Shown here piece after piece: positions 1-31,518 of a DNA stretch of 31,518 nt; positions within the stretch are counted from its first letter, which is position 1; every line of letters starts with the position of its first letter. A program made the translations under genes and the position numbers. Source of the stretch: a virus; UHGV virus genome UHGV-0133195. The stretch is one strand, 5' to 3'. The notes beneath the pieces were generated by a model. It worked only from the letters and a program-made list of their open reading frames with translations. It made no database searches and was not told the DNA's origin.

Positions 1-106
1 CTGCGCTCAGTCTCAAATTAATACAATCTGATTTTGAGTCTAACAAAGGAAAGATAAATGTCACGATATAACAAAATAGCGTAAATGTGATTTGTTACAT
101 CAAAAA

Positions 107-121
107 AACAGATTGTTTTTT
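107..121. other. Candidate attL core (left copy of 15-bp direct repeat AACAGATTGTTTTTT)
   Basis: Exact 15-bp match to 30704-30718; lies about 100 bp beyond the 3' end of the integrase gene, as expected for a P2-type int-att arrangement. Confidence 0.4.
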
Positions 122-227: not shown

Positions 228-1214
228 TCACTTTTGCCCCCTCATGAACACTGGATTTAATGTAATGGCGTCCTGTAAATAATCAGGTGCAAGGTGTGCA
301 TATGCCATTGTTTGATTAATTGAAGCATGGCCCAGAATTTTTTGCAGAGTGAGTATATTTCCACCGTTCATCATAAAGTGGCTGGCGAAGGTGTGCCTCA
401 TTACGTGGGTAGCCTGACCAGCAGGTAAATCAAACAGACCTTTCAATATGTCACGGAAAGCGAAATAGTCAGCATCGGGGAAAATGCTTCCTGATTTACG
501 GTTTTTGGTGATCTCATCATGCAGCGATGCGCTAATGGGAACCGTTCGATTTTTACCGTTTTTTGTATCAGTGAAAACAGCTTTGTATTTCAGAATGCGC
601 GAACGTTGGATTTGTGCAGCCTCATCCCATCGCGCACCAGTGGACAAGGCAAATTTTGCGAGGCGTAGATTGTCACCGTCCAGGGCAAGCAGTAGTTGCT
701 CAATTTGCGATGAGGTAAGAAATATTTTCTCGTTTTCCGTGGTTTTAACACGGGGAAGATTAGATAGGGGGTTGCTTTGTGAATACTGACCAGCCTTAAT
801 TAGTGCGGTGAAAACGCCACTGAGCAAAGCATGTTCCCGGTTAATGGTAGTAGGGCTGATACCGGCAAGTAGCCGGTTAGCCCGATATTCGGTAAACATC
901 TTTTTGTTAATGTCACCGGCGCTAGGGTTGCTGAGTTCGTAGCATATGCGATCCAGCTCAATCCGCATGATTTCCCCAGATTTTAAAGATTGGCCGTGAT
1001 ACTTCCACCAGGCTGCGATCAACTCCTCCAGAGTTCGGGTATCTTTCTTATCATCAACCATCCATTCTTTGTTGTTGTAATTCGAGACAGCCCACCGTTC
1101 GAAGCGTAGCGCTTCCGCGCGGGTGGCAAAGCGCCGACGCAGCCGCACACCCTTGCGGCCCTGTGGTCGCAAGTCCACCATATACCGACCATCTTCAAGT
1201 TTGTTGATCGTCAT
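228..1214 (-). CDS. int: Tyrosine recombinase (phage integrase, P2 Int-like)
   Basis: C-terminal catalytic region with HxxR-type motif (VMRHTFASH) and ...LGHASINQTMAYAHL ending typical of tyrosine integrases; first in-frame ATG at 1214 (MTINKLEDGRY...); the track ORF extends upstream to 1283. Confidence 0.9.
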   Translation of the reverse strand: MTINKLEDGRYMVDLRPQGRKGVRLRRRFATRAEALRFERWAVSNYNNKEWMVDDKKDTRTLEELIAAWWKYHGQSLKSGEIMRIELDRICYELSNPSAGDINKKMFTEYRANRLLAGISPTTINREHALLSGVFTALIKAGQYSQSNPLSNLPRVKTTENEKIFLTSSQIEQLLLALDGDNLRLAKFALSTGARWDEAAQIQRSRILKYKAVFTDTKNGKNRTVPISASLHDEITKNRKSGSIFPDADYFAFRDILKGLFDLPAGQATHVMRHTFASHFMMNGGNILTLQKILGHASINQTMAYAHLAPDYLQDAITLNPVFMRGQK

Positions 1215-1353
1215 TTGTGTTACCTGGTTTGTCTGAGTTTTAGATGTTTTTAATTTCAATACACTTTTAGTTAACAAGAACATTCGTTAACCCAGAAATC
1301 ACGGTAGTGACAGATGCCACCTTTACCCCATCGTTTCATTATTTCCGAAGCAA

Positions 1354-1656
1354 CTACCCAACCTTTTTCGTCTTTTGGGGCTTCGATGTGCTCTCGCATC
1401 CATTAGGGGAGAGAGCCGGACTGATCTGCCCGGCAGCTTCATTTGTTTCACCATTCATTAACCACGTCGTGTATTTTTTGAACATGGGGTGATTGGTTAT
1501 TTTCATCACGGTATCAATCCCAATATTCTCCCTTCTGCCGAGTTCATACTCCTTTTGTGTTGTCTCCGGTATTCCTGTTAATTCAAAGAATTGAGTTCTG
1601 GTTAGCCCCTCGGATTCTCTTACTTCTCTGATTTTTTTACCTATGCTTGTTGACAT
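1354..1656 (-). CDS. Immunity repressor, P2 C-type (about 100 aa)
   Basis: Small protein adjacent to and co-oriented with int, divergent from the early operon; by recollection resembles P2 C (KYTTWLMNGE and GQISPALS segments). First in-frame ATG at 1656 (MSTSIGKK); the track start at 1695 is a TTG. Confidence 0.7.
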   Translation of the reverse strand: MSTSIGKKIREVRESEGLTRTQFFELTGIPETTQKEYELGRRENIGIDTVMKITNHPMFKKYTTWLMNGETNEAAGQISPALSPNGCESTSKPQKTKKVG

Positions 1657-1710
1657 GGTGGCAATCGCCTCCCTATACTCGCCGCATGGAGGCAATTGCC
1701 GCCATCGTGA

Positions 1711-2067: not shown

Positions 2068-2289
2068 ATGGACTTATCACAATGCCCTTCACTTGCCAGC
2101 CTGCTTACCCACGGCCAGCAGATCACCCACCGTCAGCATCAACGCGGCTGGATTGAAACCCCGGACGGGCGTTTCTTCCAGCCTAAAGCGGCAGATGTTC
2201 AATTTGTTAAAAACTGCCGTTTACCGTTTATGTCACGCCCGCGTAATAAGCGCCGCTGGTTTTCCCGCTTAATGGGTATCTTCGCGTAG
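2068..2289 (+). CDS. Hypothetical early protein (73 aa from ATG at 2068)
   Basis: ORF in the early operon with GGAG upstream of the ATG at 2068; the track start at 2053 is a TTG; basic C-terminus; no recognisable motif. Confidence 0.45.
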   Translation: MDLSQCPSLASLLTHGQQITHRQHQRGWIETPDGRFFQPKAADVQFVKNCRLPFMSRPRNKRRWFSRLMGIFA

Positions 2290-2764: not shown

Positions 2765-3748
2765 ATGATTCGATCTCTCGTTAAATGGCCCGGTGGTAAA
2801 GGCCGCGTTATGCCTGATTTGCTGCCGATTCTGCCGAAAGCCGATTGCCTGGTGGAACCGTTTGTCGGCGGTGCTTCTGTTTTCCTCAATACTGAATATC
2901 GCCGTTATATCCTGGGTGATATCAACCCAGATTTAATTAACCTGTATCGCCAGATAACCCGCTGGCCTGATGCGGTGATCGACGCTGCTCGCCCGCTGTT
3001 TAAAGTGTACGGTGATAAAGACGGCTATAAGTGGATCCGCGACGATTTCAACGCTCGCGCCCATGACCTTCTGTCATCGCGCAATGTGTTTGAGGACGGA
3101 CCGGACGCGGGCAAGATTCTTCGTGCAGCACAGTTTCTTTACCTGAACCGTCACGGATATAACGGCGTAGTGCGCTACAACCAACAGGGCGGATATAACG
3201 TTCCCTTTGGTAGACACAAAACCCCGCCTTACTTCCCGGAAGAACAGATCCGTTTATTCTCTGAAAAAGCTAACGACACGAAAGCTATTTTCGTGTGCTG
3301 CGATTTCCAGAGCACGTTAAAAATCATGATTGGTAGTGACGCAGTTATCTACTGCGATCCGCCATACCTGCCAACAAGCGAAACCGCTAATTTCACCCAA
3401 TACCACACCGCCCCGTTTGGGATTAAAGAGCATCGCCAGTTAGCTGCAGCCCTGCTGGATATTAACCGCCTTACTGGTTCGCCGGTGATCCTGTCCAATA
3501 GCGACACCCCAGCCACCCGCGAGATTTATCGCGCTTTCAACTTCCAGGAAATCAGCGTTAACCGTTCTGTCAGTGCGAACGCCATTACCAGAGGGGCCGC
3601 CAGTGAAGTGATTGGCGTCCTGAAAGTGTGTAGCGGCTGCGGTCGTGCCGGTGGTGGCCGTTGCCCTGATTGTGGCCCTGTCATGGGTAACGCGACCTAT
3701 AACGAAATGCTGGCAACGGCTGCGGCCTATGGCGTGGAGCCGTTCTGA
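2765..3748 (+). CDS. N6-adenine DNA methyltransferase, Dam-like, with C-terminal Cys4 zinc-ribbon-like tail
   Basis: N-terminal WPGGKG and FVGGASVF motifs and catalytic DPPY (CDPPYLP); C-terminal CSGCGRAGGGRCPDCG cluster. Confidence 0.85.
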   Translation: MIRSLVKWPGGKGRVMPDLLPILPKADCLVEPFVGGASVFLNTEYRRYILGDINPDLINLYRQITRWPDAVIDAARPLFKVYGDKDGYKWIRDDFNARAHDLLSSRNVFEDGPDAGKILRAAQFLYLNRHGYNGVVRYNQQGGYNVPFGRHKTPPYFPEEQIRLFSEKANDTKAIFVCCDFQSTLKIMIGSDAVIYCDPPYLPTSETANFTQYHTAPFGIKEHRQLAAALLDINRLTGSPVILSNSDTPATREIYRAFNFQEISVNRSVSANAITRGAASEVIGVLKVCSGCGRAGGGRCPDCGPVMGNATYNEMLATAAAYGVEPF

Positions 3749-3975
3749 TGGTCACAAAACTGCAGATCTCATGCGCTGCGCCGGTAGGTGTCTGCGGTCA
3801 CGCAGCTGCCGAGCTGCGCCGCTTTTCTCGCGGCGTCAAAAACTATTCCCGCATCAAACCAAATTTTTACCTGGTGATCCGCATCGGTAGGCGCTGGCGC
3901 TTGCTGAGTAAAAACGGCGGCAAGGTCTGGTCACTGATGACACATGAAAAATACAACGTTGAGAGCAAGAAATGA
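3748..3975 (+). CDS. Small hypothetical protein (75 aa) translationally coupled between two methyltransferase genes
   Basis: ATG at 3748 overlaps the upstream TGA (ATGA) and its own TGA overlaps the next ATG at 3972; Arg/Lys-rich; no recognisable motif. Confidence 0.45.
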   Translation: MVTKLQISCAAPVGVCGHAAAELRRFSRGVKNYSRIKPNFYLVIRIGRRWRLLSKNGGKVWSLMTHEKYNVESKK

Positions 3976-4862
3976 CCGCTGCTTACTACAACGAAATCGA
4001 TCCATATGCAGCCCAGTGGCTGCGCAACCTTATGGCTGCGGGGTTGATTGCCCCTGGCTTTGTTGATGAAAGGAGTATTGAAGATGTCACACCCGCCGAT
4101 CTGCGCGGATTCACTCAAGTTCACTTCTTTGCCGGGATTGGTGTTTGGTCATATGCCCTGCGCCGCGCTGGCTGGCCGGACTCCAGACCAGTCTGGACAG
4201 GTTCTTGCCCGTGCCAGCCTTTCAGCCCGGCAGGCAAGGGAAAGGGATTTACTGACGAGCGGCACTTATGGCCCGCCATGCATTGGTTGGTTGGGCAGTG
4301 CGATCCTGTCGTTATCTTTGGCGAGCAATCTGCAAGCGCTGACGCAAATGACTGGATCGACCTTGTACAAGCAGACATGGAAGCAATGGGATATGCCTTC
4401 GGGGCGTGTGCGTTTCCGTCTGCGAGCGTCGGCGCACCGCACATCCGTGACAGAGCTTACTGGGTGGCCGACACCAACCGCGAGCAATACAAAGAATGCT
4501 TACCAGGACGCGCAGAAAGTCATTGCGCGGAGGCTTGCTGGCCGTCAGTCGAACTTACAAGATTTTGCCTGTCTGGCGGGGTGGCCTACACCAGCGGCAA
4601 GGGATCACAAAGGGGGGTATCAGGGGGCAGGATGCGCAACGGGAAGCTGTCAACGGACACTCTGGATGTGGTGGCACAGATAGCAGGCCCGGCCCGGTTA
4701 ACGGTTTCTGGGGATCTGCTGACTGGTTGTTCTGCCAGGATGAAAAGTGGCGGCCAGTTGAACCCGAACTTGTCCCGCTGGTTGATGGGGTTGCCTCCAG
4801 AGTGGGACGCCTTCGCGCCTACGGAAACGCCCTCAACGTTGAAGCGGCAACAGCGTTCATAA
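3972..4862 (+). CDS. C5-cytosine DNA methyltransferase (small, phage-type)
   Basis: Motif I-like FFAGIG, motif IV GSCPCQPFSPAGKG (catalytic PCQ), motif VIII-like HIRDRAYW, motif X-like LMGLPPEWD near the C-terminus. Confidence 0.75.
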   Translation: MTAAYYNEIDPYAAQWLRNLMAAGLIAPGFVDERSIEDVTPADLRGFTQVHFFAGIGVWSYALRRAGWPDSRPVWTGSCPCQPFSPAGKGKGFTDERHLWPAMHWLVGQCDPVVIFGEQSASADANDWIDLVQADMEAMGYAFGACAFPSASVGAPHIRDRAYWVADTNREQYKECLPGRAESHCAEACWPSVELTRFCLSGGVAYTSGKGSQRGVSGGRMRNGKLSTDTLDVVAQIAGPARLTVSGDLLTGCSARMKSGGQLNPNLSRWLMGLPPEWDAFAPTETPSTLKRQQRS

Positions 4863-7917: not shown

Positions 7918-8610
7918 ATGAGTTACCTGGGAAGTAAAGCGGCCAGCGGGGTCTTTCAGAAAATCATTGCCGAAATGCCCCCGCATGATACCTACATTGA
8001 AACGCATCTGGGCAGCGGTGCGGTGATGTTCCATAAACCGCCAGCCCAGCATTCTGTCGGGATTGATATTGATTCAGCTGCATTTTCGCTGACAAGGCGG
8101 CGCTGGAAAGATAAAGGATTAACGCCCCCTGACATCCATTTCCATTATGGCGATGCTGTCAGCTTTCTGGAGGGATATTTTGATTTTGCGACTGCGGGCC
8201 GGGTACTGATTTACGCCGATCCTCCTTACATGCCGGAAACGCGCACCAGTCGCGCCCGTTATCGCCATGAATACACCGTCGCCGATCATGAGCGCCTTTT
8301 ACGTTGCCTGATGTCACTGCCGGAAAATGTGAGTGTCATTTTGTCTGGCTACCCGTCGCAGCTTTATGACAGCACGCTGACCGGCTGGCGAACGCGGGAA
8401 TTTCAGGCCATGACGCGGGGCGGTGTGCGAACGGAAAAAATCTGGATGAATTATGAGGAAGGGAAAGCCTATTCCCACACCTTTGCCGGAAAGGACTACA
8501 ACGACCGGGCCAGGATAAAACGTAAAGCGGCACGCTGGCGGGATAAGTTCGCCGCCCTGCCGCCAGCGGAACGGCTGGCAATTATGACCGCGCTTTGTGA
8601 TGTCGAATAA
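7918..8610 (+). CDS. Second Dam-like N6-adenine DNA methyltransferase (short, 230 aa)
   Basis: YLGSKAAS and THLGSGAVMF motifs followed by catalytic DPPY (YADPPYMP); GGGAAAG Shine-Dalgarno upstream. Confidence 0.8.
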   Translation: MSYLGSKAASGVFQKIIAEMPPHDTYIETHLGSGAVMFHKPPAQHSVGIDIDSAAFSLTRRRWKDKGLTPPDIHFHYGDAVSFLEGYFDFATAGRVLIYADPPYMPETRTSRARYRHEYTVADHERLLRCLMSLPENVSVILSGYPSQLYDSTLTGWRTREFQAMTRGGVRTEKIWMNYEEGKAYSHTFAGKDYNDRARIKRKAARWRDKFAALPPAERLAIMTALCDVE

Positions 8611-8636: not shown

Positions 8637-8903
8637 TTATGCCGTCTGACCGTTGAGCAGGTCCAGCGCGAATTGACGTTCTTCCGGCTTGAGCCGGTCA
8701 ATCAGGAATTTAACCAGCTTGTTACCGGTCAGCCCGCTGGGGCTGAGAGTATGTGAAAACTGGGCGTTAAAAACAAAGGTGTGGCCGCATTCCACTTCCG
8801 TGCAGGCGCAGTATAAATCGGCCAGTTTTTTATCTTTCCAGTCAGATTTGCGAATGATGGCCGGTGAGCCGCATTCAGGACATTTAATTTTAAAAACTCG
8901 CAT
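8637..8903 (-). CDS. Ogr/Delta-family zinc-finger late transcription activator, putative
   Basis: CPEC ... CACTEVECGHTF spacing resembles P2 Ogr (CPLC ... CQNVNCSATF, recalled); start taken at ATG 8903 (MRVFKIKCPEC); the track ORF extends to 8963. Confidence 0.65.
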   Translation of the reverse strand: MRVFKIKCPECGSPAIIRKSDWKDKKLADLYCACTEVECGHTFVFNAQFSHTLSPSGLTGNKLVKFLIDRLKPEERQFALDLLNGQTA

Positions 8904-8959
8904 GTTCACCATCCCGCACGCCATTGCTAACAATGGGGATGATTTTAACTTAATTGCGC

Positions 8960-10021
8960 TCATTTTTCGCCCTTTTCGGCGGTAATTGCCGGGATATCCA
9001 CGTCAAAAACCAGGTGCAAATGTGGGGGGATCTCCGGGTCATTGTTGACGCCGTTCATTAGTTTGCGTTGCAACGGGATAACCTCATCCTTGCGATAGGT
9101 TGCGCGGGCCGTTTCAGGGTTGCCCATTATCGCGCCGTTGGTCGGGATAATACCCGCCAGACCTGCGGGGAAGCGGTGAGCTGTAAAGATATCCTGCGCG
9201 GTGATCCCTTTGATGTTGGCAAATTCATCCTTTGCGCTGACTTCGCCCACTGGCATGATTTTAACCCCTTCCGGGTCGCCCTTCGGGATGTTGATAAACA
9301 TATTGCGGAAGTTACCCAGCCCTTTGGACTGGGCGATCTTCTCTTTGATTTCGTTTTCCATTTCCAGCGTGAGATTGGGATCGCTGGTATAGAGAATAAA
9401 GCCCATGTGCGCCCCGTTATTGTAGTAACGGCGTCGGAAGATGGTTGCCTCACTGTTGAGTAACACCGAATGGATGCCGCCGATATAGTCAGGCAGGCCA
9501 TATACCTGCTGGCGCGGGTCGTACATTTTAAAGAAGACGATGTCTTCCGGGTCATAAATAAGCGCTGGCCCTTCCTGCAGGACAGCAAACGAGCCGTCTT
9601 TCCGGCAGCGCAGATACAGCGACGGCAGCGGCAGCAGGTCGATCACTTCCCCGAATACGTTACGAATTTTCAGGATAGCGACGTCACCAAACAGCAGGTA
9701 ATCAAAGACAGCCTGTTCGACCTGGTCAGGCGTCAGGCCGCCGCCGATATAGCCACCGGCCACCATATTGCGCCGCGCATACAGCACCCCGCCGTGTTGG
9801 CCGTTAAGGTTCGGCAACTGGGCCAGCGCCAGGCGATCAATCGGGAGTCGCCAGTGGTCATACTCATTGTCATACCAGATATTGTGATAATCAGTGCCGG
9901 TCGTCAGGATGGGTTCGGGTTCGCCAAATGTGATCACGCTTCCGCGCCCTGGCGTGAAGGATTCAACCTTGCTGCCGGTCATGGACCTGAATTTTTTATT
10001 ATTACGCTGTTTCTTTGTCAT
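8960..10021 (-). CDS. Q: Portal protein (P2 gpQ-like)
   Basis: 353-aa protein immediately downstream of and overlapping the terminase ATPase gene on the minus strand, in the P2-type Q-P arrangement divergent from the capsid operon. Confidence 0.8.
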   Translation of the reverse strand: MTKKQRNNKKFRSMTGSKVESFTPGRGSVITFGEPEPILTTGTDYHNIWYDNEYDHWRLPIDRLALAQLPNLNGQHGGVLYARRNMVAGGYIGGGLTPDQVEQAVFDYLLFGDVAILKIRNVFGEVIDLLPLPSLYLRCRKDGSFAVLQEGPALIYDPEDIVFFKMYDPRQQVYGLPDYIGGIHSVLLNSEATIFRRRYYNNGAHMGFILYTSDPNLTLEMENEIKEKIAQSKGLGNFRNMFINIPKGDPEGVKIMPVGEVSAKDEFANIKGITAQDIFTAHRFPAGLAGIIPTNGAIMGNPETARATYRKDEVIPLQRKLMNGVNNDPEIPPHLHLVFDVDIPAITAEKGEK

Positions 10022-23973: not shown

Positions 23974-25977
23974 ATGTCACAGGCCGTTATTACAAAAGTA
24001 TTTTCAGAATGGAAAGCCCAGCAGGCAATTAATAATCAGCCCGTCACGCTGGATGAATTTATTTTCGCATATATTCCGGGGCTGGATGCTGATAAGCCGA
24101 TTGATAATACCGAGACAACACCCGCAGCGGATAAAATTGTTTGTCGTCAGGCTGTGAGCAAATCCGGCGTTGTGAATGAAAATTCTGTCGTTTATTCCGT
24201 CACCCTGGGGGCGGATGTGGGCGATTTTGATTTCAACTGGATCGGTCTGGCAAATAAAGCCACCGGTACACTGGCGATGATTATTCACGCCCCGACCCAG
24301 CGCAAAATCAAAAATGCGAACGGCCAGCAGGGAAACGTGCTGGTTCGTTCCATGCTGATGGAATACAGCGGAGCCAGGGAAGCAACGGAAATTACCACCC
24401 CGGCAGAAACATGGCAGATTGATTTTACTGCCCGTCTGGCGGCAATGGATGAACGCCAGCGCCGCGAAAATATCGATCTGTATGGCGCAGCGGCATTTTT
24501 TGATTCTGGCTATCTGGTCGCAAAGTCCGGTAATCAGTTCTTTGTCACAAAGGGGGCGGGATACGTCGCCGGGTTACGTGCTGAACTGCCCGCAGACCTG
24601 AACATCAACGCAGCCGCGAAGCCGACAAAGGTCTGGCTTGATGTCAGCTGGACCGGGACGTTAACGAGCGAATGGGTAGTACAGAGCAAAATTACCGTTG
24701 CTGCAGATCTTGCCGATTATGTGCTGGGCGGTGTGCAGCATTATGTCTTTGCGGTGGCGAGTATTGATGCTGCCGGAAATATCACGGACCTGCGCCCGAA
24801 AGGCACGCTTAACGACCAGGCGGCCAGTGATGCACTGAGAAAGCATGAACAGTCCCGAAATCACCCTGATGCCACGACCAGCGAGAAAGGATTCACCCAG
24901 TTAAGCAGTGCAACGGATAGTACCAGCGAAGAACTGGCCGCTACATTGAAAGCGGTTAAAATCGCGATGGATAACGCCAACGCGCGTCTTGCAAAAGAGC
25001 GTAACGGTGGAGACATTCCTAATCCAGCCTTGTTTGTTCAAAACATTGGTTTGCAGGAAACAGTTAACAAGGCCGCCGGAGCAGTGCAGCGAAGTGAGGT
25101 CCAGACTTCGCAGGATGATGTTACTGCCGGAAAATTGCTGGTTAATGGTAGCGCTATTGCTGTTCGTAGCATCAGTGCAATCAATGAAGGACAGGTAGAC
25201 GATGCTAATAACCTTCCGGTTAATGCAGTATCGTTTGTCTATGGTGATGCCAAAAACTCACCGAGTGGAAATACAGGGACCATCCTGGATGTTTCCGGGC
25301 TTGGTAGCGGTTATAGCATCCAGCTATTCGCTAACTACTCAACAGGCGAAATACTGGCGTTTCGTGCGCGTAATGGTGATAACAGAACATGGAATAAATG
25401 GAATTTTGTGTTTCACACTGGAAATAAACCAACCTCTACAGATGTGGGTGCGCTACCTATAACAGGTGGTAATTTAAAGGGGCAACTTTCCTTTTCATTC
25501 TCACAACCCAGAAATGGCGCTAACCACTTAATATACAACGGCGATGATAAAGGAATACTGGCTTGCGGATATGGTTATTATCAGGACAGATTTGATATTC
25601 ATTTTTATGATGAAAAAGGTGCGTGGGAATCAAATCCATTAACCATTGGGCGCAATGGAAATACGACAGTTAGTGGTAATTTGTCAGGGCGTGCTGTTTA
25701 TGAAGGTAACATTCGCGTTTATTCACCAAACAACCCGCAGCCCGTTAGCTTTGAAGGTTATGCGACGCAAAGCTGGGTATTGCAGAACTTTGTCCAGAAT
25801 ATCGACCTGACTGCGCCTACTGAATTTCAGTTTTGGGATGGACGGGGTTACATGCGGGCGACTGATGGTGCGGCTATGTATAACTTTTCAATGGTGGGCG
25901 GTTCCAGCAACGTTGGCTGGATTCAGATCCGCTATACACGAAAACTGGTGAATAACACCTGGTATGTAATTAATTAA
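23974..25977 (+). CDS. Tail fiber protein (gpH-like) with compositionally distinct C-terminal receptor-binding region
   Basis: 667-aa protein followed by a fiber assembly gene; the 3' third is visibly AT-rich relative to the 5' part. Confidence 0.8.
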   Translation: MSQAVITKVFSEWKAQQAINNQPVTLDEFIFAYIPGLDADKPIDNTETTPAADKIVCRQAVSKSGVVNENSVVYSVTLGADVGDFDFNWIGLANKATGTLAMIIHAPTQRKIKNANGQQGNVLVRSMLMEYSGAREATEITTPAETWQIDFTARLAAMDERQRRENIDLYGAAAFFDSGYLVAKSGNQFFVTKGAGYVAGLRAELPADLNINAAAKPTKVWLDVSWTGTLTSEWVVQSKITVAADLADYVLGGVQHYVFAVASIDAAGNITDLRPKGTLNDQAASDALRKHEQSRNHPDATTSEKGFTQLSSATDSTSEELAATLKAVKIAMDNANARLAKERNGGDIPNPALFVQNIGLQETVNKAAGAVQRSEVQTSQDDVTAGKLLVNGSAIAVRSISAINEGQVDDANNLPVNAVSFVYGDAKNSPSGNTGTILDVSGLGSGYSIQLFANYSTGEILAFRARNGDNRTWNKWNFVFHTGNKPTSTDVGALPITGGNLKGQLSFSFSQPRNGANHLIYNGDDKGILACGYGYYQDRFDIHFYDEKGAWESNPLTIGRNGNTTVSGNLSGRAVYEGNIRVYSPNNPQPVSFEGYATQSWVLQNFVQNIDLTAPTEFQFWDGRGYMRATDGAAMYNFSMVGGSSNVGWIQIRYTRKLVNNTWYVIN

Positions 25978-25989
25978 AGGTAAATAAAA

Positions 25990-26526
25990 ATGCAGAGCTT
26001 CGGCAAATTCACCCCATATATGCCAGACACTACTGACAGACCAAAAATTATTGATGGTCAGAACGTTATGTTTTTGCAGGATGACAAAGGTAATGACTGG
26101 TATGACGTTATTAAGTTATTTGATGAATCAAAGACACTAAAAATTGGCTATGACGATGATGGCCGTGTAAGAACATTCACAACGAATATTCATGCCTTTT
26201 TCCCGGTCAATATGAGCGTTGTTGAGCTTTCAGCAACAAAAGCTAATTTGCGCGTCGCGCTGGGCGATGACTGGTTTTATAAAGACGGGAAACTGCAGCA
26301 AATCCGCGATCACCAGGCTAACGCTGAGGCCGAACGTAACAGCCGTATGGCGGACGTTACAACGCGGATTGACTGGCTGGAAGATGCGCAGAAGGACGGC
26401 GATATCTCAGCCGACGAAGAAAAAGAACTGGCAACACTGCGGGCTTATCGCACCGAGTTGCGTCGTCTTGATCTGGCTGGTGCGCCAGATATTGACTGGC
26501 CGGAGGTTCCGGGCGATGTGGCGTGA
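25990..26526 (+). CDS. Tail fiber assembly protein (Tfa, gpG-like)
   Basis: 178-aa protein directly after the fiber gene; AT-rich 5' portion continuous with the fiber 3' end, then a GC-rich 3' portion. Confidence 0.7.
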   Translation: MQSFGKFTPYMPDTTDRPKIIDGQNVMFLQDDKGNDWYDVIKLFDESKTLKIGYDDDGRVRTFTTNIHAFFPVNMSVVELSATKANLRVALGDDWFYKDGKLQQIRDHQANAEAERNSRMADVTTRIDWLEDAQKDGDISADEEKELATLRAYRTELRRLDLAGAPDIDWPEVPGDVA

Positions 26527-27759: not shown

Positions 27760-29484
27760 ATGAAACCAATTAAACGCCTGTACCTTTCCTCTGATCCGGT
27801 CCATCTGATTGACTGCAATATCGTGCTGGAGCTGAACGCGTGCGGTCGGGGGTTTATTACGGCGGGGACAGAGACAGATTACACCGGCAAAATGGTGCGG
27901 ATCGATGTTGGTTATGATGGTCTGGTCCTGCGCTGGTTTACCGGGTATGTCGAACGGTCACAGCCTGCTGATAATGGAACATGCCGGTTGTTCGTGCGTG
28001 AGCTGATCGGCATCTTTGATAAATTGTGGCCGTGTTCTTTCCAGCATCCAACGCTTCGCCAGATTACTGACTGGATAAGTGAGCAAAGCGGGCTGGCCGT
28101 CACAACGCCGGTCGGCGCTGCTTATGCAGATAAACCGATCCCCCATTTTACGCACAGCGGAACGGGCTATCAGCTTCTTGCCAGTCTGGGCCGCGCATTT
28201 ACAGTGACGGATTATCTTTGGTATCAGCTGCCGGACGGGGACGTCTTCGTCGGCGCTGCGGAGCACAGTCTTTTTGCGGGTAAGCCAGTGGAGATCCCGC
28301 ACGAATTTAGCCAGGCATCGGCGGGCGGTAATTCAATGGTTGTGCCGATGATTCAGAGCCTGCGACCAGGTGCGGAAGTGAACGGCCAGCGGGTGAATCA
28401 GGTCCGGCTAAATAACGACGACATGGCAATTACCTGGCAGCCTCGCAACAAAGCCACCGGCCAGCCATTGCAAAAATCACCGATTCAGCGGCAGATAGAA
28501 AACGCATTCCCGGAGCTGGCAAGCGGCCTGCATCTTCCAAAATTCGCCAGGGTGGAAGCACCAAGCGAGGATGTATCAGGGGGGAATATTGCCGATCCAT
28601 TCCGCCCGCGCTATGCCGTGGATCTCCAGCTGCTTGACGAAGACGGCAAGCCAGCCGCAAATACGCCGGTCTATTCTGCCGTTCCGCTACCTGTACCAAT
28701 GGCGGGCAGCGAGTCGGGAATGTTTCAGTTTCCGCCCCCTGGCACGCTGGTTGAAGTTGGATTCACTGAGGGACGGCAGGATAAGCCCTTTGTGCGCCAG
28801 ATTATGGCGGAGGGTCATAACCTGCCAGCGGTTAAACCCGGCGAGCAGTTGCAGCAACAGCGCGATGGTGTATCGCAGCGCGTGACGGTTGCCGGAGACT
28901 GGGAACGCCAGACGGACCAGACAATCCGCGAAAACTCCATGACTCGCGAAGTCACCACCGACGAAGAGATCCGCAAAGTGGTTGTCCGTGAAACTACGGT
29001 CCAGGCAACGGATAAAACAACCGTGCTTGGCACGGCCACACTTCTGGCCGGGGCGGTGGTCCATATCAGCGAGGGGGATTACAGCGTCGGCACATCCGGC
29101 AACCTGACAGTAACCTGCAGCAAGGACAATTCCGTCAGTGTTGGCCGGAACGTGAAACGGGACGTCGCGGGCAATGTAACAGACGACGTAAAAGGGAATG
29201 TCACGTCAAACGTCAGCGGCGCACTGACCGAAAAAATCAGCGGTATCCGCCGAAGTGTGGCCAAGGCGCAACAGATGATTGCCCCGGTGGTAAAACTGGG
29301 AAGCGAAGAGATTAACGTCCTGACACTACTCACCGACACCCTGGACGTGGTGAGGGAACTGGCAGAGACTGCCGCGTCACATACTCACCCCAATACAGGG
29401 GCCAGCGGGCAGGCTGCGCAGTTCACCGCAACGGCCACTAAAACCGGCACATTGAAAAGCAAATACGGTCCCCTGATAGCCTGA
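27760..29484 (+). CDS. Baseplate hub-spike protein (VgrG-like architecture)
   Basis: 574 aa; central segment MFQFPPPGTLVEVGFTEGRQDKPFV resembles the gpV/gp5 OB-fold signature; downstream repetitive GNVTDDVKGNVTSNVSG (beta-helix-like) and C-terminal SHTHPN (HxH, as at the P2 gpV spike apex). Confidence 0.55.
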   Translation: MKPIKRLYLSSDPVHLIDCNIVLELNACGRGFITAGTETDYTGKMVRIDVGYDGLVLRWFTGYVERSQPADNGTCRLFVRELIGIFDKLWPCSFQHPTLRQITDWISEQSGLAVTTPVGAAYADKPIPHFTHSGTGYQLLASLGRAFTVTDYLWYQLPDGDVFVGAAEHSLFAGKPVEIPHEFSQASAGGNSMVVPMIQSLRPGAEVNGQRVNQVRLNNDDMAITWQPRNKATGQPLQKSPIQRQIENAFPELASGLHLPKFARVEAPSEDVSGGNIADPFRPRYAVDLQLLDEDGKPAANTPVYSAVPLPVPMAGSESGMFQFPPPGTLVEVGFTEGRQDKPFVRQIMAEGHNLPAVKPGEQLQQQRDGVSQRVTVAGDWERQTDQTIRENSMTREVTTDEEIRKVVVRETTVQATDKTTVLGTATLLAGAVVHISEGDYSVGTSGNLTVTCSKDNSVSVGRNVKRDVAGNVTDDVKGNVTSNVSGALTEKISGIRRSVAKAQQMIAPVVKLGSEEINVLTLLTDTLDVVRELAETAASHTHPNTGASGQAAQFTATATKTGTLKSKYGPLIA

Positions 29485-29550
29485 CAAAAAGCGGCATAAC
29501 CGCACACCTCACCAGACACCACAGAACGCGCCACAACAGGCGCAAATATT

Positions 29551-29580
29551 AAAGGCCGCCACCGTGCGGCCTTTCTTTCG
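29551..29580 (+). terminator. Rho-independent terminator after the tail operon
   Basis: Stem AAAGGCCGC / GCGGCCTTT with 6-nt loop CACCGT followed by a T-rich tract (TTTCTTTCG). Confidence 0.6.
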
Positions 29581-29688
29581 TTCGTTCAACAGCGGCCCAC
29601 AGCGTAAGCGACAGCAGGCAGGCGGAAGCGGATCCAGGACGGAAACGGCGCTACACCGCACCCGCCTGCGCAGTTTGGATCATAAAAA

Positions 29689-29800
29689 TTTTGCAAAGGA
29701 AATTTTGTGCAAAGTACCCCGCCAGCCTGCGACGCTGCTGGGCTTTTGCATCCTGCGGGCGTTTGCACGCTGCGCAAAGATTTGCAGCACTTTGCAAAAG
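29689..29800. repeat. Array of TTTGCA / TTTGCAAA motifs, including four tandem 10-bp units
   Basis: Palindromic TTTGCAAA at 29690-29697 and 29791-29798 (third copy at 29970-29977, outside this span); TTTGCA at 29745-29750, 29762-29767 and 29781-29786; decamers gTTTGCAcgc / TGCGCAaaga / TTTGCAgcac / TTTGCAaaag at 29761-29800. Confidence 0.5.
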
Positions 29801-29993
29801 TCACCGCGCCGCCAGTTGCTAACCGACTGGATAACATGATGTTTTTAAAAGGATCGTTTTAGTTTCCGTCACGATCAAATGCGGCTAGGGGTTGTATGGG
29901 AATATTTGGCGGGAATTCTGCGAAGCCTTGCGGCGCAAGGCTTTAGGGGGAAAACTTCATGATTTGGGTTTTGCAAAATAATGCTAAGAAGGA

Positions 29994-30524
29994 TCAATCA
30001 GGTAGGCGGCCTTTAGTCACCTCAAAATCAATCAGTTTGTTTGTTTTCGTATCAAGTGTACAAGAATACGTCATATTAACTTTGGCGTTAAAACCATTGG
30101 TAAATTTCAGCTTATCGCCCACATAAACAATCTGGTTCTGTTCCGGTTTGTTAATGTACCGACTAAAGATATTTTCAAATGCACCATTGGTCCATTCGAA
30201 ATCATACTTTGAAGTTTTCTCAATAGGGCTTTTACAGGCTACCAAAGCATCAACCAAATGGGCTTCAAAAATACACTGCCCATCATTCTTATCACACACC
30301 TTAACTTTTGGCTCATCTTTGGCCGTTGCCTCTTCATCACCGCTGAAATACCAGTAACCAATCCCAGCCAGCACTAAGAGAACGATAAAACCGCCAAACG
30401 CATCGCTTGCTTTGACGCCTGGATTTTTGACACCACAATGAGGGCATGTCTTTGCCTTGGATGAAATCTCTTTTTTACACTCTTTACACTTAACCAATGC
30501 CATCTGATAAACCATCCTTTTCAT
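29994..30524 (-). CDS. AT-rich cargo gene: N-terminal zinc-ribbon, single transmembrane helix, C-terminal domain of unknown function
   Basis: CKECKK ... CPHCG zinc ribbon, hydrophobic helix FGGFIVLLVLAGIGYWYF, then about 110 aa with conserved Cys; visibly lower G+C than the phage genes; first ATG at 30524 (the track start at 30536 is a TTG). Confidence 0.55.
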   Translation of the reverse strand: MKRMVYQMALVKCKECKKEISSKAKTCPHCGVKNPGVKASDAFGGFIVLLVLAGIGYWYFSGDEEATAKDEPKVKVCDKNDGQCIFEAHLVDALVACKSPIEKTSKYDFEWTNGAFENIFSRYINKPEQNQIVYVGDKLKFTNGFNAKVNMTYSCTLDTKTNKLIDFEVTKGRLPD

Positions 30525-30703
30525 CTGGATAACCAAGAAACCGAAGTCTAACGGCTACGTGCATTCAGGAAAAGGAAAAAGCCCAGCAGTATCTGCAAGG
30601 CTTTGAGTTGGTATCACAAGGACTAACACTTCGACGTGGTCATTTTGTGGACCTATTAATATAAAAATCAATTAAAATCAATGTGTTATGTTGAATGTAA
30701 AAT

Positions 30704-30718
30704 AACAGATTGTTTTTT
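30704..30718. other. Candidate attR core (right copy of 15-bp direct repeat)
   Basis: Exact copy of 107-121; immediately adjacent to the stop codon (30719-30721) of the MurR/RpiR-family gene. Confidence 0.4.
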
Positions 30719-31468
30719 TTACGCTATTCTTTTCGCCAGCTTGCGACCGAGTGATTCCAGAATATAAATAACGGGGATCTGCGTGGTTATATCGTATACC
30801 CCGGCAATACGTGTTTGTGGAACATGCCAGGAGAGGTTAAAGTCGGCGAGTTTCGCCAGGCGAGAGTGTTCATGGCTGGTGACCGACAGAACCTTACAGT
30901 TGTGCAGACTGAACTGGCTGGCAAAGCGCAGGATCTCTTCTGTTTCACCAGATACGGAAAGCACGATCGCCAGCGCGTTTCTGGCCATGTCGTTAGTGAC
31001 CGGGAAATAAGGATCGTCAATGTGATTACTGAATTTACCGACGTTTGAGAAAAAACGTGCGCCATATTTTGCCAACGCTCCAGACGTTCCTGCTCCGACG
31101 AATATAATACGTTCGGACGATAATATAATATCAACAGCCTGATCGAGCAGTTTATCGAACTCGTCGTTATTGACGCCTTTAAAGAAACTGATAATTTCGC
31201 TGGCACCGAAATTAGCCTGTTGCGGTTCATTCTGCTCTAAATATAATTTGAAGCGCACGCGAAATTCTGAGTAACCTTCACATTTAAGCTTGCGGCAAAA
31301 GCGCAGTACGGTGGTAGTAGAAACACCCACGGCATCGGCCAGCTCGCGAATGGTCATGTACATGACTTTGTCACGGTTTTTGATGACATAGTTGTAGACC
31401 AGCATCTCAAGATTGTTGAGACTGGCGATGGCAGCGTGGGAGAACATACTCACAATGGCAAAACTCAC
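30719..31468 (-). CDS. MurR/RpiR-family transcriptional regulator (HTH plus SIS domain), probable host gene
   Basis: N-terminal HTH region (TIRELADAVGVSTTTVLRFCRKL) and SIS sugar-phosphate-binding region (IIFVGAGTSGALA); the true start may be an internal Met (for example MFSHAAIASL). Confidence 0.8.
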   Translation of the reverse strand: MSFAIVSMFSHAAIASLNNLEMLVYNYVIKNRDKVMYMTIRELADAVGVSTTTVLRFCRKLKCEGYSEFRVRFKLYLEQNEPQQANFGASEIISFFKGVNNDEFDKLLDQAVDIILSSERIIFVGAGTSGALAKYGARFFSNVGKFSNHIDDPYFPVTNDMARNALAIVLSVSGETEEILRFASQFSLHNCKVLSVTSHEHSRLAKLADFNLSWHVPQTRIAGVYDITTQIPVIYILESLGRKLAKRIA

Positions 31469-31518
31469 TCATCAGACTTCATCTACAGGGAATAATAACA
31501 TGCAGCCAAATGACATCA

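Follow-up and report, generated by a model that had tools for sequence, protein, structure and literature searches.

A compositionally foreign zinc-ribbon membrane protein gene in a variable cargo slot beside attR of a Peduoviridae prophage

It is well established that exclusion and defence functions can be encoded by accessory genes located beside the repressor, the integrase gene (int) and the attachment (att) sites of prophages. In the present work, we have analysed UHGV virus genome UHGV-0133195, a stretch of 31,518 nucleotides (nt) that is referred to here in its entirety as the window, and in particular an AT-rich gene near its right end (29994..30503, minus strand), which is referred to below as the cargo gene. 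Our analyses have identified this gene as a horizontally acquired single-gene accessory cassette (moron) in a Peduoviridae prophage of the HP1/P2 type, which is Irrigatiovirus-like. Its product is predicted by modelling to be a bitopic inner-membrane protein, the zinc ribbon of which faces the cytoplasm and the cystatin/NTF2-like domain of which faces the periplasm, and a role in protection of the lysogen is tentatively favoured for it on the basis of analogy. The gene belongs to a known kind, viz. morons of lysogeny modules, and the protein is of an uncharacterised architecture with a C-terminal domain that is absent from PADLOC, Pfam, and PDB. The main features of the gene and its surroundings are as follows.

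29994..30503, minus strand: cargo gene (510 bp, stop codon 29994-29996), encoding a 169 amino acid (aa) protein with a zinc ribbon, one transmembrane (TM) helix and a periplasmic domain
27760..29484, plus strand: last tail gene, encoding a 574-aa spike/baseplate protein, convergent with the cargo gene
102..121: attL core, beside the tyrosine integrase gene (228-1283, minus strand)
30699..30718: attR core, abutting the stop codon of a host rpiR-family gene
30719-31468, minus strand: host RpiR/MurR-family regulator gene, G+C 47%

A cargo gene between the tail operon and attR

The full minus-strand open reading frame (ORF) extends over 29994..30536, and the start of the cargo gene was set at the inner ATG at position 30503, which is the start (MAL, MAM or MAI) in all 64 of the 64 aligned homologues and which yields the protein of 169 aa. 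The gene had been described from the sequence alone as AT-rich and compositionally foreign to the phage, and a comparison with the phage genes bears this out: its G+C content is 40.4% (39.4% at third codon positions, GC3) vs. 54.3 +/- 3.7% for 30 phage genes, which is the lowest value of all of the genes in the window. The placement proposed at the same time is likewise confirmed, as the gene is oriented opposite to the tail operon, converging from the minus strand on the last tail gene, and it is located between this spike-like gene (27760-29484), which is itself preceded by a gene of the HP1_ORF34 family, and attR (30699-30718).

The ends of the prophage are marked by a pair of 20-nt direct repeats, identical at 19 of 20 positions, which are found at 102-121 (AAAAAAACAGATTGTTTTTT) and at 30699-30718 (AAAATAACAGATTGTTTTTT). 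Between copies of the same phage that are integrated elsewhere in the chromosome, similarity ends precisely at 30718/30719, which places the junction of phage and host at this point and hence the cargo gene inside the prophage. No tRNA is present at the att site. The exact RpiR flank protein is a protein of the Citrobacter freundii complex, indicating that the prophage resides in a Citrobacter chromosome; E. coli, which was considered as the host, was rejected.

The identical 169-aa protein is recorded in 66 index blocks, and in the 24 contigs that were read it is always found beside the same tail genes, with differing host sites. One of these sites is the rpiR/yqfB site seen in the window, and a second is represented by yafT/insertion sequence (IS)/Rhs surroundings in one genome and by umuDC in another; an 88% variant of the protein occurs at a yegQ site, and homologues that are ~50% identical to it occur at mntR and tRNA-Ile sites. 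The sequence-only reading had specified that the presence of the gene at the same chromosomal site in the absence of a prophage would make it a host gene. Because the identical protein or its 88% variant occurs beside the same tail genes at several sites, the gene moves with the tail module from site to site, and a host origin of this kind does not apply.

Morons are recognised by their absence from close relatives, by the possession of their own promoter and terminator and by their expression from the repressed prophage (criteria of Juhala/Hendrix, summarised in PMC3594210). The backbone of the window phage is shared with the Salmonella phages SI7, SW3, and SW5 (Peduoviridae, Irrigatiovirus), to which it is 96.8% identical over window positions 8000-29879, and all three of these close relatives lack the cargo gene and differ from the window phage in their int/att module. 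The gene is therefore dispensable for phage growth. A deviating G+C content, a further criterion of morons, is apparent from the values given above. In regard to a promoter and terminator, the gene exhibits a weak -10-like hexamer (TAGACT), which was not called by a promoter scan, and a downstream hairpin that lacks a U-tract.

The same backbone is also present in 19 complete E. coli genomes, in which it is 95.6% identical up to position 29879, and a megablast search of 29400-31518 against E. coli genomes produced only the match to the backbone, ending at 29879. In the one of these 19 genomes that was examined (E. coli 2011C-4251, NZ_CP027388; locus L001, 4670-5635), the cargo slot is occupied by a gene for AbiH, a protein of 321 aa (PADLOC AbiH match, 2e-29), which has the same orientation and is located before yegQ. 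Since the position between the last tail gene and attP is without the cargo gene in SI7, SW3, and SW5 and contains AbiH in an E. coli relative, it constitutes a variable cargo slot, and the earlier suggestion that related phages carry cargo at this position is thereby substantiated. In closely related phages, AbiH and the cargo gene are thus located in the same place, after the last tail gene and before attR, and point in the same direction; however, AbiH is cytoplasmic and unrelated, and the cargo protein shows no AbiH match. The E. coli strains with related prophages at yegQ include O103:H2, O111:H2, and O45:H2. A megablast search with the E. coli-type homologue of the cargo gene as the query returned no match, and in distant mode this homologue was detected in no more than 4 of the 5426 complete genomes of E. 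coli.

A cassette in which the zinc-ribbon gene is accompanied by an 85-aa ORF and by a DUF6338 gene was also observed to recur (L102 5001-6648 in E. coli GF131; L013/L103). In GF131 it is located beside tRNA-Ile and terminates a CI/integrase element of another kind, and this placement indicates that the cassette moves between mobile elements and remains att-proximal. A PADLOC search with the neighbouring slot genes of relatives (viz. the 85-aa, DUF6338, DUF2806, 265-aa, and 228-aa proteins) produced no match.

The non-coding features on either side of the gene are listed below.

30515..30519, minus strand: Shine-Dalgarno-like AAGGA, 11 nt 5' of the ATG, read from the sequence; GGA/GGAG is found at the equivalent position in relatives
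30545..30550, minus strand: candidate -10 hexamer TAGACT of a putative weak promoter; TAGACTT is present in the window and in the loci L008 and L017
30571..30604, minus strand: hairpin with U-tract, intrinsic-terminator-like, between attR and the cargo gene (-13.9 kcal/mol, z = -2.3)
30636..30652, minus strand: Int arm-type repeat pair GTCCACAAAATGACCAC of the attR arm; TCCACA...GACCAC is kept in 8 of 10 relatives
29923..29944, minus strand: perfect 9-bp hairpin without a U-tract, ~50 nt 3' of the cargo stop codon, part of the conserved phage backbone
29551-29574: clean terminator of the tail operon, after the spike gene

The suggestion that the gene possesses its own upstream region requires a correction. 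The room available for a promoter upstream of the gene is limited to ~70 bp, which contain the weak TAGACT hexamer, whereas the 215 bp that separate the gene from the host sequence (30504-30718) are for the most part attR, consisting of its core, the Int arm-type repeats and the hairpin with its U-tract, and they do not represent a dedicated regulatory region. TGTGGAC repeats similar to those of the attR arm are also present near int of SI7. The hairpin at 30571-30604 is retained in L008 and L017, where one base change restores a pair. In the prophage, it would block read-through of the host rpiR-family transcript; in the circular phage, it is located across attP from int, a placement that recalls the sib/tI retroregulation of int in lambda. 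An Rfam match to the isrJ small RNA (sRNA) at 30578-30648, which is centred on this hairpin, scores 22 bits and thus falls below the gathering score of 37, and no sRNA is claimed.

Protein architecture and distribution of the family

The four segments of the cargo protein correspond to the following parts of the gene.

30414..30503, minus strand: Lys-rich C4 zinc ribbon, predicted to be cytoplasmic, residues 1-30, with C6, C9, C20, and C23 invariant
30342..30410, minus strand: single TM helix, residues 32-54 (AlphaFold2 helix 32-54)
30297..30341, minus strand: acidic, disordered, poorly conserved linker, residues 55-69 (predicted local distance difference test, pLDDT, <50 for residues 55-66)
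29997..30296, minus strand: predicted periplasmic alpha+beta domain, residues 70-169, with 4 conserved Cys

The architecture that had been read from the sequence (a cytoplasmic zinc ribbon, one helix and an extracytoplasmic domain) is upheld by the Cys motif, the hydropathy profile, the AlphaFold2 model and the distribution of charge. The zinc ribbon is formed by a CxxC-N10-CxxC motif at residues 6-23. A hydropathy maximum (19-residue segments) is found at residues 35-53, with a mean Kyte-Doolittle value of 1.88. The net charge is +5 before the helix and -2 in the segment that follows it, and hence the protein fits a topology with its N-terminus inside and its C-terminus outside. In the AlphaFold2 model, residues 70-169 form two helices packed on a 5-strand antiparallel sheet (pLDDT 85-94). 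Exactly 4 Cys are present in the C-terminal part of all full-length members of the family (61 of 61), in the cargo protein as C70, C77, C90, and C148, and they probably form two disulfides in the periplasmic domain. The segments differ in conservation, with a mean pairwise identity of 78% for the zinc ribbon, 48% for the periplasmic domain, 28% for the TM helix and 22% for the linker, and the conservation of the zinc ribbon extends to positions other than Cys.

The only family match of the protein is to PHROG 13160, a family without an assigned function (E = 8.7e-23; residues 10-162 aligned to positions 1-137 of the 139 in the profile), and the names used in public records are limited to "membrane protein", "zinc ribbon domain-containing protein" and "hypothetical protein". 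Pfam searches with the cargo protein and 64 relatives detected zinc-ribbon families only, with weak matches to Zn_ribbon_3, UPF0547, and DZR in all 64 members and none on the C-terminal part, and a search of NCBIfam returned noise only. In view of the generic Pfam matches, the unknown function of PHROG 13160 and the lack of a PADLOC match, the earlier statement that the architecture matches no recognised system stands.

Several proteins that share one or another feature with the cargo protein can be distinguished from it. Like P2 Ogr and P4 Delta, it contains a small Cys4 zinc-binding motif and, as is the case for ogr in P2, its gene is near the right prophage end; however, the cargo protein has in addition a TM helix and a periplasmic domain, and it shows no match to Ogr_Delta (PF04606) at E <= 0.1. 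The window phage has its own Ogr/Delta homologue (8637-8963, minus strand; 2.6e-17), which is located next to the portal gene. Hence, the right-end cargo gene is not the late activator, and of the comparison with the P2 ogr position made in the sequence-only reading, the location at the right prophage end is retained, whereas the ogr gene of the window phage lies elsewhere. A zinc-binding anti-sigma factor (HxxxCxxC) was also considered; the cargo protein has the CxxC-N10-CxxC motif instead and no anti-sigma Pfam match, and no sigma-factor Pfam domain occurs beside the gene in the gene tables of related loci. The periplasmic domain resembles bitopic proteins of the VirB8/DotI/TraM type and PepSY/cystatin-like domains at the level of the fold only (4-13% identity); unlike the cargo protein, the VirB8/DotI/TraM-type proteins have no zinc ribbon, and no secretion-system genes are found near the cargo gene.

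Our first search identified 76 near-full-length homologues with the invariant Cys and conserved motifs. Homologues are found in Peduoviridae prophages of Gamma- and Betaproteobacteria, in every case in the lysogeny-proximal region and frequently just 3' of the cI repressor gene. In the Enterobacterales, the gene is att-proximal and located beside the spike gene, sometimes with genes of unknown function (DUF6338, DUF2806) in between. In P2-type prophages of Cupriavidus, Pandoraea, Pseudomonas, Marinobacterium, Rubrivivax, and Thauera, a cI-like repressor gene is followed by the gene on the same strand, and in all six of these genera except Thauera the gene converges on gpD. It also converges on gpD in Comamonas, where no cI match was found. 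Our searches of IMG/VR confirmed 94 matching stretches, from which 78 loci were retained, and Peduoviridae marker genes are present near 58 of these. In ~50 of the IMG/VR loci, spike or gpD follows the gene and/or cI or ogr precedes it, and in many cases the gene is the last one on its provirus contig. In the circular form of the window phage, the order is C repressor, int, attP and cargo gene, all on one strand, and the viral contig L107 carries a C repressor, int and the gene, likewise co-oriented, and a convergent spike gene on one molecule, with a different int/att module. To judge from this gene order, the family is tied to the lysogeny region of the Peduoviridae.

The zinc-ribbon/TM module also occurs with other C-terminal parts. 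It is fused to other periplasmic domains, e.g., VasI/PF11319 and DUF4352; in Vibrio sonorensis (L075 9353-11577), cI is followed by a zinc-ribbon/TM protein with a different ectodomain and then by int, with overlapping stop and start codons; and in Ralstonia (L063/L064), the module carries an unrelated periplasmic domain and is located directly 3' of cI. This pattern in the sequences suggests that the ectodomain is exchanged as a module behind a zinc-ribbon/TM anchor. A profile of the periplasmic domain detected 2135 clusters at 50% identity, 1326 of them with E <= 1e-10, and in these the domain is always C-terminal; the anchors that precede it in the best 147 matches are a zinc ribbon in 27% and in most of the others one or two TM helices. 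In P2-like prophages of Cupriavidus (e.g., C. taiwanensis, L097 7280-7966), we also observed a gene for a conserved 228-aa protein, without a Pfam or PADLOC match, between the cI-like repressor gene and the zinc-ribbon gene; this protein may be a partner of the zinc-ribbon protein or a further moron.

Possible roles of the cargo protein

The reading that we favour, with a confidence that remains somewhat short of even, is that the cargo protein is a prophage-expressed inner-membrane moron that serves as a superinfection-exclusion or envelope-protection factor. An exclusion role is suggested by the analogy with Glo, HK97 gp15 and Sie2009, by the presence of AbiH as an alternative occupant of the slot and by the existence of P2-like phages with defence hotspots, of which minor ones are near att (PMC13586616). 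In Vibrio phage K139, the lysogenic operon transcribed from PL is cI-orf2-glo-int, and Glo is annotated as a "periplasmic protein; involved in phage exclusion" (K139 record; PMC4870250). Glo and the cargo protein are both small extracytoplasmic proteins of Peduoviridae, encoded on the lysogenic strand in the niche between the repressor gene and int/attP, and the glo slot corresponds to the position of the Vibrio zinc-ribbon/TM protein between cI and int. The HK97 moron gp15 resides in the inner membrane and prevents the entry of phage genomes (PMC3594210), and Sie2009 belongs to the small membrane-anchored superinfection-exclusion (Sie) factors that are encoded in lysogeny modules (PMC7693887). 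The cargo gene shares with HK97 gp15, P22 SieA, and the lactococcal Sie2009, all of which are expressed from prophages and act against genome entry, a differing G+C content, a variable presence and a product that is a small prophage inner-membrane protein (PMC3594210, PMC7693887, PMC10883804), and with genes of the Sie2009 type it shares the location in the lysogeny module and the N-terminal membrane anchor.

Under this reading, the cargo protein would be made in the lysogen from its own weak promoter or, in relatives, from the cI transcript, an expectation based on the synteny with cI and int. The periplasmic domain would then bind a conserved component that is needed for genome entry, which could be either the ejection machinery of the incoming phage or a host inner-membrane or periplasmic factor, and the zinc ribbon would anchor, oligomerise or couple the protein on the cytoplasmic face of the membrane. 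If phage entry is blocked in this way, the protein would provide a new architecture for superinfection exclusion and a handle on the inner-membrane events of genome injection; if it is not, the gene would be an ordinary uncharacterised moron. As a single gene of 510 bp with natural gene-free relatives (SI7, SW3, and SW5), it is cheap to test.

The known exclusion proteins also differ from the cargo protein. Glo appears to be a helical protein and is made with a signal peptide that can be cleaved, whereas the cargo protein is tethered to the membrane and combines a cytoplasmic zinc ribbon with an alpha+beta domain; HK97 gp15, P22 SieA, and Sie2009 have neither a zinc ribbon nor an NTF2/cystatin-like ectodomain, and they have no Pfam or PADLOC link to it. 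Neither the cargo protein nor its 64 relatives matched the HK97 gp15/YebO family of Pfam, and literature searches returned no relevant account of a membrane protein with a zinc ribbon that takes part in exclusion or defence.

A number of results weigh against a role in exclusion. For Glo itself, hhalign gave a probability of homology of 0.2% and BLASTP no alignment. The search of PADLOC-DB v2 with the cargo protein returned 0 defence families at E <= 1, Foldseek searches against PDB and BFVD returned nothing at E <= 1e-3, and a sequence profile searched against PDB chains gave chance matches (E > 0.3). In regard to expression in the lysogen, the terminator at 30571-30604 separates the gene from any upstream transcription, and the consensus promoter scan, by which TAGACT was not called, detected no sigma-70 site on the strand of the gene. 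Further, the periplasmic domain retains polar motifs (EWTDG and GDK.KF.NGFNA) across Proteobacteria, and it is also found behind other anchors in loci without recognisable P2-like genes nearby. These conserved motifs and this wide distribution suggest that the ligand is conserved and is not a rapidly evolving phage target, and an immunity-like or inhibitor role would agree equally well with such a ligand; the near-invariance of the zinc ribbon, encoded beside cI, in turn allows for a regulatory role.

A broader form of the exclusion reading, which we regard as doubtful, is that the family in which a zinc ribbon is joined through one TM helix to a periplasmic four-Cys alpha+beta domain represents a widespread unrecognised class of single-protein exclusion or entry-blocking factors in the Peduoviridae lysogeny module, in which a constant zinc-ribbon anchor would bear interchangeable periplasmic "warheads". 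The different C-terminal domains found in the same slot of the Vibrio and Ralstonia prophages are the observation to which this proposal refers.

An alternative is a lysogenic-conversion factor that contributes to the fitness of the envelope and is not directed against phages. The target that its membrane-tethered periplasmic domain would bind or inhibit would be a conserved enzyme or toxin of the periplasm, such as a peptidoglycan hydrolase, a protease, or an effector of the type VI secretion system (T6SS) or a colicin, and the protein would thereby act in an immunity-like or stress-protection capacity. The fold-level matches of the domain include cystatins, latexin, and PepSY-type inhibitor folds, its polar motifs extend over the 2135 clusters, with many anchors and many members without recognisable phage neighbours, and relatives that share the N-terminal module carry other periplasmic domains such as VasI/PF11319 and DUF4352. 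However, no inhibitor motif was identified, the family is strongly bound to Peduoviridae lysogeny regions, and the slot is otherwise occupied by AbiH in this phage family; we consider this role rather unlikely.

It is improbable, in our estimation, that the protein is a transmembrane sensor or regulator of the lysis-lysogeny decision of the phage, with a signal from the envelope perceived by the periplasmic domain and passed on by contact of the zinc ribbon with nucleic acid or with the repressor, Cox or Int machinery. In its favour, conservation within the protein is highest in the zinc ribbon, including its non-Cys positions, and the gene adjoins cI or int in many phages; nevertheless, close relatives are viable without the gene, AbiH can take its place, the same zinc-ribbon/TM module is found with unrelated periplasmic domains, and the protein matches no DNA-binding family and is not an Ogr/Delta protein.

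Still less probable is an abortive-infection (Abi) or membrane-damaging effector that would oligomerise and permeabilise the inner membrane upon infection. The occurrence of AbiH in the slot of relatives and the encoding of a membrane protein by a single gene accord with it, but the protein has one TM helix only, its well-folded and conserved periplasmic domain is atypical of pore-forming Abi effectors, and neither a partner or sensor gene nor a PADLOC match is present. Finally, a host chromosomal gene or a spurious ORF, for which it may be noted that the G+C content of 40% deviates less from the value of the adjacent rpiR-family gene (47%) than from the mean of the phage, is refuted by the location of the gene inside the att repeats, its movement with the phage, its 76 near-full-length homologues and the IMG/VR loci with Peduoviridae markers.

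Other features of the phage genome

The non-coding backbone between the tail operon and the cargo gene contains a cluster of TTTGCA/TGCAAA motifs, in which 8 of the 33 matches in the window are packed into 109 bp (29690-29798). The palindrome TTTGCAAA is found at both ends of this cluster (29690-29697 and 29791-29798), and another copy is located just 3' of the cargo stop codon (29970-29977). The region is kept in SI7 and in the E. coli relatives, and on the basis of its sequence the cluster may be a candidate regulator-binding array.

The G+C content is also low (45-48% vs. 54%) in the tail-fibre assembly gene and in the part of the tail-fibre gene that encodes the C-terminal half (25000-26526), as would suit a host-range cassette that has been swapped. 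Despite a phage genome of 30 kb, putative genes for DNA methyltransferases number three (2765-3748, 3972-4862, and 7918-8610), two of them named only via the SI7 annotation of their equivalents and the third on the basis of a weak match to D12 N6-adenine methyltransferases, and this trio may serve in anti-restriction. Near the left end, the window carries a homologue of phage 186 Fil (2068-2289, plus strand) and a gene for a C-type helix-turn-helix (HTH) repressor (1354-1695, minus strand).

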